A stretch of 4,814 bases of DNA, taken from the IMG/VR virus record IMGVR_UViG_2695420744_000014, one strand, 5' to 3'. This stretch comes from a virus. Taxonomy: Duplodnaviria > Heunggongvirae > Uroviricota > Caudoviricetes. This document shows, piece by piece, positions 322-4,814 of this stretch. Positions within the stretch are counted from its first letter, which is position 1. Each line of letters starts with the position of its first letter. Position numbers and translations under genes: made by a program. Under the pieces are notes generated by a model. It was given only the letters and a program-made list of their open reading frames with translations. It was not told where the DNA came from and did not search any database.

Positions 322-1068
322 TTACTTCACAACCCTCATATTGCTGACATTTGGACGCCAGCTATCCCAGTTAAACGTCACCCATCGACCACCGTTCATG
401 GTCATGCGGTCCATAATCCTCTCACCAAGAAGCGTACTCATTGCGGCATGATTCAGGTTTGTTAACATCCCGACACTGCACAGTGATGCTGTCCGGCGAT
501 CAATTATCTGGTGCAATACCACCTGCTCGTTTTTCGTCTCCCGCTGAACGCCTATTTCATCCAGGACCAGCAAATCAACCCCGCAAAGCTCCTGTAAAAA
601 TTTTTCCCCGGATTTGCCGTTGTCGTAGCTGTCATGCAACACGCTCATGACGTCAGACACGGTGACGATAATCACGCTGCGCCCCTTCACCATCAGCCGG
701 TTGCCCATCGCCGCTGCAAGGTGATTTTTCCCGGTGCCGGTTTTACCGCTGAACACAAAATTCGTGCACCCGGTCATCAGTTCGTCAGCTATGGATTTGG
801 CCTGGCTCAGCGCGTATTTTTGCCCGTCGTTCTGCACCTGATAATTTGCAAACGAGCATTTGCTGTGCAGAGGCTGGATGCCCGAACGATTCAGGATTTT
901 TTCCACCCGCAACTGGCGATTCTGGCGGTTAATCTCCTCGCTGCGTTTTCGTCCTTCAGCAAGTTGCCATTCCCGCCACTCCTCCACCGTCCGGTACGGT
1001 GGAACCGACCCCTGTGGTGCAAGTCTGCGAATACGTTCAAGAACCCCAACTGCCGCAATGTTTTTCAT
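322..1068 (-). CDS. DnaC-like AAA+ replicative helicase loader (phage P-equivalent; IstB/DnaC family), 248 aa
   Basis: Full-length ORF; ATG at 1068-1066 lies 6 nt after the stop of the upstream O-like gene. Walker A-like GKTGTGKNHLAAA and Walker B-like LLVLDEIG are present. Strong recalled similarity to E. coli DnaC across the whole length (for example FANYQV, SQAKSIADE, FVFSGKTGTGKNHLAAA, TNLNHAAMSTLLGERIMDRM). Same size and position as Rac-prophage YdaV, but the symbol is left blank because identity was not checked. Confidence 0.9.
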   Translation of the reverse strand: MKNIAAVGVLERIRRLAPQGSVPPYRTVEEWREWQLAEGRKRSEEINRQNRQLRVEKILNRSGIQPLHSKCSFANYQVQNDGQKYALSQAKSIADELMTGCTNFVFSGKTGTGKNHLAAAMGNRLMVKGRSVIIVTVSDVMSVLHDSYDNGKSGEKFLQELCGVDLLVLDEIGVQRETKNEQVVLHQIIDRRTASLCSVGMLTNLNHAAMSTLLGERIMDRMTMNGGRWVTFNWDSWRPNVSNMRVVK

Positions 1069-1074
1069 GACACG

Positions 1075-2007
1075 TCACCCCCTGAATCCCGGCGGTATTT
1101 CAGTGTCCGGTTCAGAAATGTGATTCACGCAACGCTGCGCAGGCGAACGCCCTAGGCGGATAACCAGTTCATCCCATTTTTCCCGGAGTTTTGCCGGACT
1201 CATGATGTTTTTTACCCAGAACGAATCCCGCTGGAGACGCCCAAACATTTCACAAATTTGTCTGTGAGTTCTGCCATCCAGCATCCGCATTGTGCGAACG
1301 TCATTGGCCCATGCTGTCCAGTTGGGTTCTTTCGGTCTAGTGATCTCGCCATCATAGCTGGCCGCCTGCTCGTAAAGACTCACGATTCGTCCCCAGATCC
1401 ACTGTGCGCACACCAAATCTTCCTGACTTCCCCACTGGCGTTTTTTCGCACTGAACACAACCGCGTCAGGGTGTCGGGTTAAAAAATCCTGTTCAGCCGT
1501 CTGCGGGTCCGGTTGCGAAGCGTCCGGACAAGAAGATCTTTTATCTGACGGATCAGGTTTTAATACTGACGGATCGGGGTCAATCATCGCCCCCCTAATC
1601 GGCAGTTTTTTATCAACAGTTGATCCATCAAAATTTGACGGGTCAACCGTTGAGGGGTCATTTTTTGCCGGGCTAATTTTTCTTTTCGGTTTATATGACT
1701 CACGCGCCGCCGCCGCAGCTGCTTCGAGTTTTTCCACATTAAGCCGATAGATATTGCTTACATTACGCCCACCGACCTTACGCTCTTCCTTCGTCAGCCA
1801 GCCCTCTTTCGCCAGTTCTGCAATAGCCGATTTCACTGTGGATTCACTTCTTGCACCGATCTGACGCCGGATAGTTTCAATGGCAGGCCATGACACGCCC
1901 TCGTCATTGCTGTAGTCTGCAAGACGGGCCATAACCGCCACCCTGGATAAGATCATGCCGGTGAAGGCGCACCCTTCCCAGACAAGACCATGAAGCTTGC
2001 TGCTCAT
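1075..2007 (-). CDS. Phage replication initiation protein, lambda O-like architecture: N-terminal winged-helix DNA-binding domain, low-complexity linker, C-terminal domain possibly DnaT-like
   Basis: Long ORF directly upstream of and coupled to the DnaC-like gene. The preferred start is ATG at 2007-2005 (MSSKLHG...), preceded by a GGGGG run with a 4-nt spacer. The ORF track extends to a GTG at 2022, which is less likely. N-terminus has wHTH-like sequence (ETIRRQIGARSESTVKSAIAELAKEGWL); the middle is a poly-Ala and DP/PS-rich linker coinciding with DNA repeats; the C-terminal domain is W-rich. Domain names are inferred from recall. Confidence 0.8.
   Translation of the reverse strand: MSSKLHGLVWEGCAFTGMILSRVAVMARLADYSNDEGVSWPAIETIRRQIGARSESTVKSAIAELAKEGWLTKEERKVGGRNVSNIYRLNVEKLEAAAAAARESYKPKRKISPAKNDPSTVDPSNFDGSTVDKKLPIRGAMIDPDPSVLKPDPSDKRSSCPDASQPDPQTAEQDFLTRHPDAVVFSAKKRQWGSQEDLVCAQWIWGRIVSLYEQAASYDGEITRPKEPNWTAWANDVRTMRMLDGRTHRQICEMFGRLQRDSFWVKNIMSPAKLREKWDELVIRLGRSPAQRCVNHISEPDTEIPPGFRG
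1545..1700. repeat. Putative replication origin inside the O-like gene: iteron-like direct and palindromic repeats followed by an AT-rich tract
   Basis: Seen directly. CTGACGGATC(A/G)GG at 1545-1557 and 1566-1578, with related TGACGGGTCA at 1636-1645. Palindromes ATCAACAGTTGAT (1612-1624) and TCAACCGTTGA (1643-1653). GGGGTCA at 1576-1582 and 1654-1660. A T-rich stretch follows at 1658-1700. The repeats encode the DP/PS-rich linker of the initiator, as for ori-lambda inside gene O. Confidence 0.5.
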
Positions 2008-2029
2008 AAAACCCCCGAACACCGTGCTT

Positions 2030-2455
2030 TTAGTGCATCACCACAGCATTCCCTGCCGGGCCGCCGCGATTCATCTGGTCATACAAAACAACCGCTGACG
2101 CAACAAAATCATCGACATCCTTCACCAGCCGATCCCTCCGTTCGACGATCTCACGGTAATATTCAGAACTGTGGCTGCGCATACGGGCCACCAGCAAAGG
2201 CGGCATCGCCTTTTCGATCGCCGGTAACAGAGCCTGCATTTTTTCAACAGCATCAGGGGTGTCTTTATCCAGCCAACGGAAAATTTTCTGGGTATTACGG
2301 GCCAGGGCTTCCGGATGGCTGTCGTCGTACAGTTCAGGGAACGTCATCCCCAGTTCGAAATAAGTCCGGGCTATTTCAGCTGCAGGAACTTTCTCACCAT
2401 CAGGGTATGCCCAGGCATTCATCGCCATGCGGATGTGCTCATGTTTGATTTTCAT
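2030..2455 (-). CDS. ydaT: YdaT-family protein (CII-like HTH regulator; reported as toxic when derepressed), 141 aa
   Basis: ATG at 2455-2453, stop TAA at 2032-2030. Its start overlaps the last 17 nt of the upstream Cro-like gene in another frame (translational coupling). Sequence recalled as the YdaT family of Rac / CP-933P prophages. It occupies the cII position between cro-like and O-like genes. Confidence 0.85.
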   Translation of the reverse strand: MKIKHEHIRMAMNAWAYPDGEKVPAAEIARTYFELGMTFPELYDDSHPEALARNTQKIFRWLDKDTPDAVEKMQALLPAIEKAMPPLLVARMRSHSSEYYREIVERRDRLVKDVDDFVASAVVLYDQMNRGGPAGNAVVMH

Positions 2456-2762
2456 GAATCATTTGCCTCTTGATGCTTCGGGTATGATCGTTTTCGTCAT
2501 TTGGTTGCTTCATCGACATATTCTGCGAATAACATGACGAGCGTCGTAAGTATGTCCAATCAACATCAGGACGAAGTTCTTCACACAGGACACCACCTTT
2601 TGTTGCTCGTTCAATCGCAGGACATCTCTCAGCAGGTAACTGACGTACACCTTTGATCCATTGATTTACGCTTGGAGGAGATACACCTAAAAGCCTAGCC
2701 ATTGCTGATTGCCCACCGACAACAGCACAAGCTCGTTTGAATGAATAGTTATCTTTTTTCAT
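2439..2762 (-). CDS. ydaS: YdaS-family Cro-like HTH protein (XRE-type), about 107 aa
   Basis: Preferred start ATG at 2762-2760 (MKKDNYSF...) with SD GGAG (complement of 2771-2774) about 8 nt upstream. The ORF track extends to 2783, but that start would sit inside the predicted promoter. HTH-like segment ACAVVGGQSAMARLLGVSPPSVNQWIKG. First gene downstream of the pR-like promoter, divergent from the repressor. Confidence 0.8.
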   Translation of the reverse strand: MKKDNYSFKRACAVVGGQSAMARLLGVSPPSVNQWIKGVRQLPAERCPAIERATKGGVLCEELRPDVDWTYLRRSSCYSQNMSMKQPNDENDHTRSIKRQMIHENQT

Positions 2763-2886: not shown

Positions 2887-3363
2887 ATGCTTAGTGGTAA
2901 AGACTTAGGCCGAGCGATAGAGCAGGCCATTAACAAAAAAATTGCATCAGGAGCCGTCAAATCAAAGGCGGAAATCGCACGTCATTTCAAAGTCCAACCA
3001 CCATCAATCCATGACTGGATTAAGAAAGGTTCGATAAGTAAAGACAAACTTCCAGAACTATGGCGTTTCTTTTCTGATGTGGTTGGTCCAGAGCATTGGG
3101 GGCTTAACGAATACCCCATACCAACCCCATCCACTTCAGATACAAAAAGTGAACTTTTAGACATAAACAGCCTTTATCAAGCCGCCTCTGATGAAAAAAA
3201 AGCAATTGTGGCTTTCATCTTATCTGGAAATGCTACGGAGCCTAGTTGGGTTGATTATGACGTTCGCGCCTACATTGCCGCAATGGAAATGAAGGTAGCT
3301 AACTATCTGAAAAATCAAGAATCAAAACGGAAAAGCCAGAACATCACCAAGACAGGAACTTAA
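2887..3363 (+). CDS. racR: RacR-like prophage repressor (N-terminal XRE/cI-type HTH, no S24 peptidase domain), 158 aa
   Basis: ATG at 2887 with AGGAG at 2871-2875 (spacer about 11 nt, slightly long); stop TAA at 3361-3363. Divergent from the Cro-like gene and flanked on both sides by the operator palindromes. HTH-like N-terminus (GKDLGRAIEQAINKK...KAEIARHFKVQPPSIHDWIKKG). Length and context match Rac-prophage RacR; identity is from recall. Confidence 0.8.
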   Translation: MLSGKDLGRAIEQAINKKIASGAVKSKAEIARHFKVQPPSIHDWIKKGSISKDKLPELWRFFSDVVGPEHWGLNEYPIPTPSTSDTKSELLDINSLYQAASDEKKAIVAFILSGNATEPSWVDYDVRAYIAAMEMKVANYLKNQESKRKSQNITKTGT

Positions 3364-3437
3364 ACTTATATGGTCCGACGGGAAATTCCTAGTTCCCGTT
3401 AGTTAACTCCTACTACCTCTCCCACAAACCATCACCT

Positions 3438-3500
3438 ATTAGGTTGCGCCCAAATTATTAGGCATAGCCTATTGACAAGTAATTAGGCATTTCCTATAGT
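3438..3500 (+). promoter_or_regulatory. pL-like sigma70 promoter with left operator sites, driving plus-strand genes downstream of racR
   Basis: -35 TTGACA at 3472-3477, 17-nt spacer, -10 TATAGT at 3495-3500. Operator-like palindromes ATTAGGCATAGCCTATT (3457-3473) and ATTAGGCATTTCCTATA (3482-3498) overlap the -35 and the spacer/-10; a degenerate third site lies at 3438-3454. The 23-mer TATTAGGCATAGCCTATTGACAA (3456-3478) is an exact inverted copy of 2813-2835. Confidence 0.55.
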
Positions 3501-3681
3501 TTTCCCATACCAACCCATCCCGTCCCACACAATACAGGGCAATACCTCGAGTTACCAGGCAGTGGTCAGGGGTTAAGTAGCCAGCCCGAGGCGTAAGAAC
3601 ATGACGGCAGGGTTCAACTTTAATAACTATGCAGCAGGTTTTTGTTCCGCTACCCCGGCGTTAAGGGGAAATGAGGTCAGC

Positions 3682-3834
3682 ATGGATACTATCGAGCTTG
3701 GCAACAACGAATCTCTGGTATGCGGCGTGTTTCCCAACCAGGACGGCACGTTTACCGCGATGACATATACCAGAAGCAAAACGTTTAAAACTGAAGCTGG
3801 CGCGCGTCGCTGGTTAACCAGAAACACTGACTGA
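3682..3834 (+). CDS. Small early-left protein (50 aa), YdaF-like / DUF1391-like by recall
   Basis: ATG at 3682 with SD GAGG at 3673-3676 (5-nt spacer); stop TGA at 3832-3834. The ORF track starts at ATG 3601 (77 aa), but that start has no convincing SD. Family assignment is tentative. Confidence 0.5.
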   Translation: MDTIELGNNESLVCGVFPNQDGTFTAMTYTRSKTFKTEAGARRWLTRNTD

Positions 3835-3845
3835 TGAGGTTGACG

Positions 3846-4166
3846 ATGGAATTTAAAGATTTACCAGTACCATTCCAGGAAATGGCATCGAATGTGGTTC
3901 GCTCTCAACTGGCGACTCTTGACCTGAGTACCGTAGAAAAAGAAACCATCGACAATATATCCGGTAACGTACGCCGAGCCTTTATCGGGCTGTACGAAGA
4001 GAAGCAGCTCTCTGATAACCAGGATTTACATGAAAAATACTTCCTGGATCTAATGGACATCATTGATAAGGGGTTTGGCTTGTTAATGAAAAAGAAAGGG
4101 ATTCGAATAGAACCCCTTGAAAATTACTTTGCAACAAAAAGCATTAATTCTTTTGATTCAAAATAA
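3846..4166 (+). CDS. Hypothetical protein (106 aa from ATG 3846), charged and probably helical, function unknown
   Basis: ATG at 3846 with SD GAGG at 3836-3839 (6-nt spacer). An alternative ATG at 3834 overlaps the upstream stop (TGATG). Stop TAA at 4164-4166. GC content falls toward the 3' end. I recognise no family. Confidence 0.5.
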   Translation: MEFKDLPVPFQEMASNVVRSQLATLDLSTVEKETIDNISGNVRRAFIGLYEEKQLSDNQDLHEKYFLDLMDIIDKGFGLLMKKKGIRIEPLENYFATKSINSFDSK

Positions 4167-4419
4167 GAGAATTAATTACAGACTTAACATGCTCTTTCTC
4201 ATGATTGAAGCTCTCATGATTGAAAGTGCCGGGTTGAAGCGAGTCGATATAATCAACAAGACTCTGTCGTACGACTTCATTTTTATCCATAACAGATGCA
4301 AGAAATGAAATTGCTAAAAGAGTTATATCACTACGCGCCGCAGCATGTTGCAATGCTTTATCAAAATTATTAATCTGGCGTATCAGGGAGTTAATGATTT
4401 CATCATTTTCAGTCGACAT
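4144..4419 (-). CDS. Hypothetical protein (91 aa), AT-rich, function unknown; convergent with and overlapping the 106-aa gene by 23 bp
   Basis: ATG at 4419-4417 with a strong SD AGGAGG (complement of 4425-4430) and 5-nt spacer; stop TGA at 4143-4141 (coordinates follow the ORF track's 3' boundary). The track ORF extends to 4752 from a TTG start; that extension is rich in rare Arg codons (CGG, CGA, AGG) and unlike the rest, so I treat it as non-coding. Contains a 15-bp in-frame tandem duplication. Confidence 0.5.
   Translation of the reverse strand: MSTENDEIINSLIRQINNFDKALQHAAARSDITLLAISFLASVMDKNEVVRQSLVDYIDSLQPGTFNHESFNHEKEHVKSVINSLILNQKN
4197..4226. repeat. Two-copy 15-bp tandem direct repeat (TCTCATGATTGAAGC / TCTCATGATTGAAAG) inside the 91-aa gene
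   Basis: Seen directly; 13 of 15 positions identical. In the minus-strand frame it encodes the duplicated peptide FNHES/FNHEK. Confidence 0.7.
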
Positions 4420-4439
4420 TTCACCCTCCTGAGGGTTGG

Positions 4440-4814
4440 TGATTAAGGAGTTCTCCACGGGTGAGGTGGAGTGCGTGCGCCGGACACGGGTGAGCATCCG
4501 GCACTGACAGTTTACTGAAAGGATATTTCCCTGAAAAGTCAGACCATAACGCGAAAGCGCCCGGCGAGGTAGCTGGTTCATAGATAGCCTGTCGTTAAAT
4601 TTTCGTCGACCGTGCGTTTCCGGTTGTGGCAATCCGCGAAATGGCGCGGCGGTAAGTATGGCGGGGTTATTCCTTCCCCGTTGAGGACACCGAGTTGTCA
4701 GGTTGACCATACGCTTAAGTGACAACCCCGCTGCAACGCCCTCTGTTATCAATTTTCTGGTGACGTTTGGCGGTATCAGTTTTACTCCGTGACTGCTCTG
4801 CCGCCCTTTTTAAA
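4440..4814. other. Structured, GC-richer, apparently non-coding block upstream of the 91-aa gene; possible long 5' leader, ncRNA or REP-like element
   Basis: No credible ORF on either strand. Hairpins read directly: CTCCAC/GTGGAG (4453-4471); GCCGGA/TCCGGC (about 4475-4504); CCGCG/CGCGG (4634-4649); CGGGG/CCCCG (4662-4680); GTTGTCA/TGACAAC (4694-4726). No sigma70 promoter for the 91-aa gene was found inside it. Confidence 0.3.

Follow-up and report, generated by a model that had tools for sequence, protein, structure and literature searches.

The two convergent genes described here lie inside the repressor-controlled ydfA–DicF–dicB operon of an Escherichia coli prophage, and they are two separable modules with no obligate pairing. 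ORF106, on the plus strand, is a member of that operon, which runs ydfA, ORF106, DicF, dicB. ORF91, on the minus strand, lies antisense within it, and our comparison of related loci shows it to be one of several alternative occupants of a polymorphic reverse-strand slot that adjoins the DicF leader on its upstream side. The window, by which we mean the whole stretch of 4,814 nucleotides that was analyzed, matches, at 100% identity, a prophage integrated at ompW in an E. coli chromosome and is part of a lambdoid prophage with RacR immunity. Both ORFs are real genes. Most E. coli genomes contain the DicF–dicB module, frequently in multiple copies; it controls both cell division and phage entry, and its regulation is only partly understood.

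The immunity region and the start of the operon contain the following features.

322-1068, minus strand: DnaC-like ATPase
1075-2022, minus strand: replication initiator
2030-2455, minus strand: YdaT-like gene
2561-2762, minus strand: YdaS/Cro-like gene
2793-2807, 2819-2833 and 2844-2858: palindromes between racR and the cro-like gene
2887-3363, plus strand: RacR repressor
3458-3472 and 3483-3497: palindromes covering the two hexamers (−35 and −10) of the left promoter
3472-3500, plus strand: pL-like promoter of the ydfA–DicF–dicB operon, TTGACA-17-TATAGT, 11/12 consensus positions
3682-3834, plus strand: ydfA-like DUF1391 gene (PF07151, E = 2.8e-28; RefSeq annotation), first of the operon

Palindromes of the 15-bp form TTAGGC-N3-GCCTAA gave 8 strand matches against 0.10 expected, and the five listed above are probably RacR operators. 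Because two of them cover the hexamers of the left promoter, this promoter is very probably under repressor control, in agreement with an earlier note on this DNA. The same note had set the gene pair directly downstream of the promoter, a placement that we correct in that the DUF1391/ydfA gene intervenes and in that the pair sits inside the ydfA–DicF–dicB operon, a context the note had missed. In the source genome, the order is racR, the DUF1391 gene, ORF106, ORF91, dicB, a DUF1482 (ydfD-like) gene, an exonuclease gene, xis and int; the window ends just past the T-run of the DicF terminator, and dicB comes next. ORF106 lies between the promoter and ydfA on one side and DicF–dicB on the other, on the same strand as both, and the RNA that makes DicF and DicB in this prophage must cross ORF106 and, in the antisense direction, ORF91. 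The flanks of the region (ydfA, leader and DicF) were matched in 4566 of 5426 E. coli genomes, and a search with 3400-4814 of the window gave about 11,000 matching places in them. On the other arm of the immunity region, the minus-strand genes that stand where cII and cro would be are assigned by Pfam to the families 'YdaT toxin' and 'YdaS toxin', respectively; here, YdaT- and YdaS-type genes occupy the slots of ordinary immunity-region regulators, adjoining the RacR repressor.

The dicBF operon of the Qin prophage (ydfA-ydfB-ydfC-dicF-dicB-ydfD) shares with this one the DUF1391 gene, the leader, DicF, dicB and ydfD. The window differs in that it lacks ydfB and ydfC, in that ORF106 and ORF91 stand between ydfA and the leader, and in that the repressor is of the RacR type rather than DicA. 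In K-12, DicF is processed by RNase III/E, and a study of the plus strand of the dicBF operon detected no second promoter inside it (PMC10448788). Induction of the dicBF operon is toxic (PMC5069750).

The pair itself and the DNA that follows it are made up as listed below.

3846-4166, plus strand: ORF106, 106 aa, with GAGG 6 nt 5′ of its ATG
3846-4004, plus strand: conserved N-terminal module of ORF106 (MEFKDLP..., codons 1-53, GC 0.45), common to PHROGs 1363, 2151, 9419 and 33007
4005-4166, plus strand: exchangeable AT-rich C-terminal part of ORF106, GC 0.33
4086-4118, minus strand: predicted intrinsic terminator for the ORF91 transcript, a hairpin with a T tract inside the ORF106 coding sequence
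4144-4166: overlap of the 3′ ends of ORF106 and ORF91, 23 bp
4144-4419, minus strand: ORF91, 91 aa, with AGGAGG (4425-4430) 5 nt 5′ of its ATG
4197-4224, minus strand: tandem 15-bp repeat in ORF91, two 13-nt perfect copies, encoding FNHES-FNHE
4420-4436, minus strand: common translation-start platform, tcAGGAGGgtgaa-ATG, which serves five families of reverse ORFs, of which four show no sequence relationship
4437-4754, plus strand: conserved DicF leader (about 335 bp), also present in phages without the gene pair
4755-4806, plus strand: DicF sRNA, complete (RF00039, 76.7 bits, E = 2.7e-16)

This geometry, with convergent genes that overlap at their 3′ ends and a good ribosome-binding site in front of each, is as the earlier note described it. 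The further statement that both genes are more AT-rich than their flanks holds for ORF91, with a GC content of 0.35, and for codons 54-106 of ORF106, and fails for codons 1-53 of ORF106, so that the AT-rich block sets in midway through this gene and not at its start. Across the block, the GC content is 0.33-0.37 as compared with 0.45-0.54 in the surrounding DNA (0.50 in ydfA and 0.54 in the DicF leader), a base composition unlike that of the neighbors. Lack of conservation as coding sequence had been put forward as grounds for rejecting the pair; we obtained, from a single pair of alleles, dN/dS ratios of 0.24 for ORF106 and of 0.28 for ORF91, which point to coding sequence in both cases. RefSeq annotates both ORFs as hypothetical proteins (WP_001435739.1 and WP_000102678.1).

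Over its full length, ORF106 belongs to PHROG 6937 (E = 6e-67), with residues 1-106 on positions 1-106 of a 124-position profile, of which the protein in the window lacks the last 18. The related PHROGs 1363, 2151, 9419 and 33007 match only the first 53-66 residues, and neither PHROG 6937 nor any of these relatives has a known function. The 231 relatives of ORF106 that we collected occur in Escherichia and Salmonella, and all are unnamed or hypothetical. In the AF2 model of ORF106 (pLDDT 70.8), there are three main helices (8-23, 32-55 and 59-83), with a pLDDT of about 85 over the first 50 residues and below 50 in the tail; the model of ORF91 has four helices and a pLDDT of 69. Both proteins are computed to be acidic and soluble, with pI values of 5.0 and 5.4. 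Searches of Pfam, NCBIfam and PADLOC returned nothing below an E-value of 0.01 for either protein; for ORF91, Pfam gave no match at E ≤ 1, and PHROGs, NCBIfam and PADLOC were likewise empty. Foldseek comparison of the models, which are of moderate confidence (pLDDT about 70), to the PDB and BFVD, as well as a sequence search of the PDB, yielded nothing significant for either. The impression that neither protein falls in a recognized family thus survives the searches of Pfam, NCBIfam, PADLOC, the PDB and BFVD, PHROG 6937 being itself uncharacterized, and in the databases searched neither protein resembles exclusion, defense or regulatory proteins in sequence or fold.

To what extent the two genes belong together can be read from the roughly 200 related loci that we compared overall. 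Eighty of these were IMG/VR loci fetched for a plus gene at least 89% identical to ORF106, and 77 were informative. The 91-aa reverse ORF accompanies a plus gene of 106 or 109 aa in 53 of the 77, the plus gene is 124 aa long and the reverse ORF is absent in 22, and in the other 2, a 124-aa plus gene is followed by an unrelated 73-aa reverse ORF; ORF91 is present or absent, then, between the same flanks in close relatives. The switch from the 124-aa to the 106-aa form of the plus gene is where the ORF91 cassette begins, and the last three codons of ORF106 stand in place of the 21-residue tail of the longer form. At the same place, the PPompW phages have a 135-aa plus gene with a 77-aa reverse ORF, and mEp460 has a 121-aa plus gene with a 66-aa reverse ORF. 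The plus genes of all such pairs have the first ~50 residues (MEFKDLP...) in common and diverge beyond. The 135-aa gene is a shortened version of a 201-aa form, so that, with 106 residues in place of 124 and 135 in place of 201, loci that bear a cassette repeatedly have shortened plus genes. Phage Tritos has ydfA-ydfB-ydfC, the leader and DicF with no gene pair, and the K-12 Qin prophage, with ydfABC and then dicF, has the same order and likewise lacks the pair (PMC5069750). Some genomes have ydfABC as well as the pair, which then follows ydfC.

These comparisons show ORF106 and ORF91 to be two separable modules. They bear out the suggestion of a variable cassette at a fixed position, occupied by alternative reverse ORFs or by none, and speak against the two genes being one functional pair, as the earlier note had treated them: the plus gene stands alone in 22 of the 77 loci and has another partner in 2, and the remote ORF91 homologue described below faces an unrelated gene. 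A coupled two-gene system (toxin and antidote, abortive infection, or sensor and effector), with the C terminus of the plus gene product and the minus-strand protein as cognate partners, is accordingly an explanation that we consider unlikely. It would account well for the six different convergent pairs at the same position, for the association of each C-terminal type of plus gene with a particular minus-strand ORF across overlaps of 11-41 bp, and for a variable block that covers both the plus-gene C terminus and the minus-strand ORF. It sits poorly with the occurrence of the same plus-gene body alone or alongside either the 91-aa or the 73-aa ORF, with the shortened plus genes at reverse-cassette loci, and with the HTH protein that the remote homologue faces. 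Cognate partnership is weakened on all three counts, by loci without the reverse gene, by loci with another one and by the remote contig. The genes are also neither always together nor co-transcribed, as those of a toxin–antitoxin system would be, since they converge and the plus gene can occur alone, and neither protein matches a known type II toxin–antitoxin or defense family in PADLOC, Pfam or NCBIfam. In every lambdoid locus examined, the reverse ORF adjoins a gene of the MEFKDLP type, and some functional link between the two may exist.

The slot is defined by its start. We scanned IMG/VR for the 19-mer CACCCTCCTGAGGGTTGGT and found that the ORFs beginning at the platform ATG fall into five families, of 77, 91, 92, 73 and 63 aa, with a sixth, of 66 aa, in mEp460. 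The segment tcAGGAGGgtgaaATG, which adjoins the leader, is common to unrelated reverse ORFs, and each family comes with a characteristic form of the plus gene, which it overlaps by 11-41 bp. Kinship is detectable only between the 91-aa and 92-aa families, which are 28.6% identical over 84 aa (pairwise E = 5e-7); the 63-aa and 66-aa families may be related (E = 0.008). Three of the families correspond to PHROGs, none of known function: 10348 for the 77-aa, 34441 for the 66-aa and 7249 for the 73-aa ORF. Of 5426 complete E. coli genomes, 198 have the 91-aa ORF, 650 (O157:H7 included) the 77-aa ORF, 127 the 92-aa ORF and 88 the 73-aa ORF. The searchable papers on the dicBF operon and on morons nowhere mention these ORFs or the slot.

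In a homologue search, ORF91 has only close relatives, all from Escherichia. When 1.84 billion representatives were scanned in full with HMMER, a single genuine distant relative emerged, P0139, of 92 aa (E = 8.7e-5); two other hits from that scan, P0137 and P0138, proved to be repeat-protein artefacts and were discarded. The contig that encodes P0139 (L207; Logan SRR5508307, 1-1710) opens with the reverse-complemented DicF leader, followed by a diverged platform, the ORF and a similar hairpin. There, the ORF runs convergently into the gene for an unrelated 214-aa HTH_3 protein and overlaps it by 41 bp; that gene follows a Cox-like one in an immunity region of the P2 type, and an integrase is present. 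That a P2-like prophage has both the leader and an ORF91 homologue indicates that a leader-plus-reverse-gene module moves between phage types, and the reverse ORF travels with the DicF leader and not with ORF106. The last ~20 residues of this HTH_3 protein (MKMKGAQFDPL) resemble the tail of ORF106 (MKKKGIRIEPL), and both are encoded opposite the terminator hairpin.

Signals for transcription of the minus strand are unevenly distributed. Past the ORF91 stop codon by 26 nt, AAGGGGTTCTATTCGAATCCCTT and then TCTTTTTC form a predicted factor-independent terminator with a 9-bp stem (−11 kcal/mol). The hairpin is kept in the diverged 91-aa allele (L053 and L051), occurs in a diverged form in L207 and is found again ~95 nt past the stop codon of the 73-aa ORF. 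Terminator candidates are weaker for the 77-, 92- and 63-aa ORFs, and we found none for the 66-aa ORF. Our comparison shows that the start platform and the predicted terminator are shared. At the other end of the gene, neither a consensus scan nor inspection by eye of the minus strand from 4420 to 4814 turned up a sigma-70 consensus promoter 5′ of the ORF91 ATG; the sole sigma-70-like site upstream on that strand (9/12 positions) lies beyond DicF. The lack of such a site is the main gap in the argument; a weak promoter, or one of a type other than sigma-70, may be present. Promoter-like sites on the minus strand (9/12) also occur inside ORF91 (4394-4366, past the start codon) and inside ORF106 (4086-4059); they may be no more than intragenic promoters that arise by chance in AT-rich DNA, or they may give rise to an antisense RNA.

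The nearest parallel in architecture is N/sieB of lambda, where two genes likewise converge in the corresponding place, and to this extent the comparison with the lambda slot that the earlier note drew was apt. The sieB gene is made from the prophage and excludes other phages. In lambda as here, a reverse-strand gene converges on the pL-proximal early gene, with sieB abutting the 3′ end of N. The likeness does not reach the proteins, since SieB has 184-192 aa, belongs to PF14163 and has long hydrophobic stretches, whereas ORF91 is a soluble helical protein of 91 aa (GRAVY −0.31) that does not match PF14163 in the same Pfam library in which lambda SieB does so at E = 1e-29. The partner differs as well, in that ORF106 is not N, and the slot here is polymorphic with one common start platform. 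Like ORF91, sieB is patchy: P22 has it, and the closely related phage L does not (PMC8022706).

A second comparison is with phage morons, as reportedly described by Juhala et al. 2000 and Hendrix et al. 2000. ORF91 resembles them in being present or absent between the same neighbors, in its deviant base composition and in having its own predicted terminator. It differs in that its own promoter was not detected, in that its ribosome-binding site is common to unrelated cargo ORFs, and in that its cassette overlaps and truncates a neighboring gene instead of lying between genes.

From these analogies, ORF91 is most likely a moron-like gene made under pL repression, and its most probable function is the exclusion of other phages or the restraint of the toxic dicBF operon; its promoter, its expression in the lysogen and its biological function are what we infer in this way. 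We favor an account in which two separable modules meet, ORF106 as an early operon gene and ORF91 as moron-like cargo expressed in the lysogen, and would give it an even chance of being right. ORF106 would be co-transcribed with ydfA, DicF and dicB from the left promoter upon derepression of the prophage, yielding a small, acidic, helical protein with a conserved N terminus and a C terminus that is swapped or truncated between phages. Unrelated small ORFs are swapped into the slot behind one AGGAGG-ATG platform at the DicF leader. By analogy with sieB converging on N, ORF91 would be made while the left promoter is repressed, its transcript would end at the minus-strand hairpin within ORF106, and the protein would give the lysogen an accessory function, either phage exclusion or restraint of the dicBF operon. 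The ORF91 RNA would be antisense to the 3′ end of ORF106, and strong transcription from pL would collide with it. A broader version, in which the edge of the DicF leader is a dedicated platform for swapped, unrelated small lysogen genes, all new families that exclude phages or check DicF and DicB, is more speculative, and we think it rather improbable as a whole.

The proposal that ORF91 encodes a protein under selection draws on its alleles. Two groups of them, beginning MSTEND... and MGFDVN..., differ at 16% of nucleotides, and both have exactly 91 codons. The dN/dS ratio for this frame is the lowest among the six frames (19 synonymous and 24 non-synonymous differences; Fisher p = 1.5e-4), which indicates that ORF91 is under purifying selection. 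The 15-bp repeat is present in 1, 2 or 3 copies among alleles, and the frame is always kept; some alleles, such as P0013, are truncated. The length of the ORF by itself is only modest evidence for a gene, because an ATG-initiated ORF of at least 91 aa appeared in 32 of 2000 dinucleotide shuffles of 4000-4436 (1.6%); the comparative evidence is stronger.

The locus might instead act mainly at the level of RNA, with ORF91 transcription as a cis-antisense brake on read-through into the toxic DicF and dicB and with the protein secondary; we judge this no better than the coupled system. The position of the predicted terminator would let the ORF91 RNA overlap ~70 nt of the ORF106 3′ end, and the slot follows the DicF leader rather than the plus gene. 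RNase III, an enzyme that cleaves double-stranded RNA, processes the DicF precursor, which has to traverse this stretch (PMC10448788), and the operon to be held back is toxic when expressed (PMC5069750). Such a brake would not call for purifying selection on the ORF91 frame or for a perfect AGGAGG, and it would leave unexplained why five ORF families stay open behind the same start; moreover, many prophages, K-12 Qin among them, do without the reverse gene, and the promoter that an antisense RNA would need was not found. The lambda cII/oop pair offers a parallel, as there too an early gene is met at its 3′ end by an overlapping transcript from the opposite strand, and a role for RNase III is plausible. 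The 77-nt oop RNA, antisense to cII in lambda, is non-coding, whereas ORF91 is a conserved protein-coding gene.

That ORF91 is an unexpressed chance frame in AT-rich DNA, with ORF106 the sole gene, is highly improbable: the promoter was not found, nor were homologues outside enterobacterial prophages or of known function, such lengths do arise in shuffled sequence and some alleles (P0013) are truncated, but chance would have to account for the lowest dN/dS of six frames, two diverged alleles that both have 91 codons, indels that stay in frame, a perfect Shine–Dalgarno sequence at ideal spacing, a remote homologue at 28.6% identity and four further ORF families that begin at the same ATG.

Accessory cassettes of prophages are known; what is unusual here is one start platform for unrelated cargo ORFs beside an sRNA leader. 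The reverse-gene slot is occupied in about one-fifth of complete E. coli genomes (the sum of the four families counted), O157:H7 strains included. Should the small proteins function in the lysogen, they would represent new factors for exclusion or regulation and would place a toxic prophage operon under additional control; if they have no measurable effect, the locus is still a clean case of cassette exchange at a gene start.

The starts of several genes in the region are open to more than one reading. On the minus strand, a longer frame runs through the leader (202 aa from a TTG at 4752, with 4420-4752 fused to ORF91), and RefSeq has a 145-aa version of it in some genomes (WP_001351093.1). 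We rejected the longer frame, since 1-bp indels break the extension in many related loci, which supports the 91-aa reading; the extension through the DicF leader is probably an annotation artefact. RefSeq is inconsistent as to the ORF91 start, giving 91 or 145 aa, and this can be corrected. On the plus strand, the open frame of ydfA extends back as far as an ATG at 3601, which would give 77 aa, the RefSeq start being 3682. An ATG at 3834 that overlaps the ydfA stop codon (TGATG) would make ORF106 110 aa long, and the MEFKDLP start is the conserved one where the gene follows ydfC instead.
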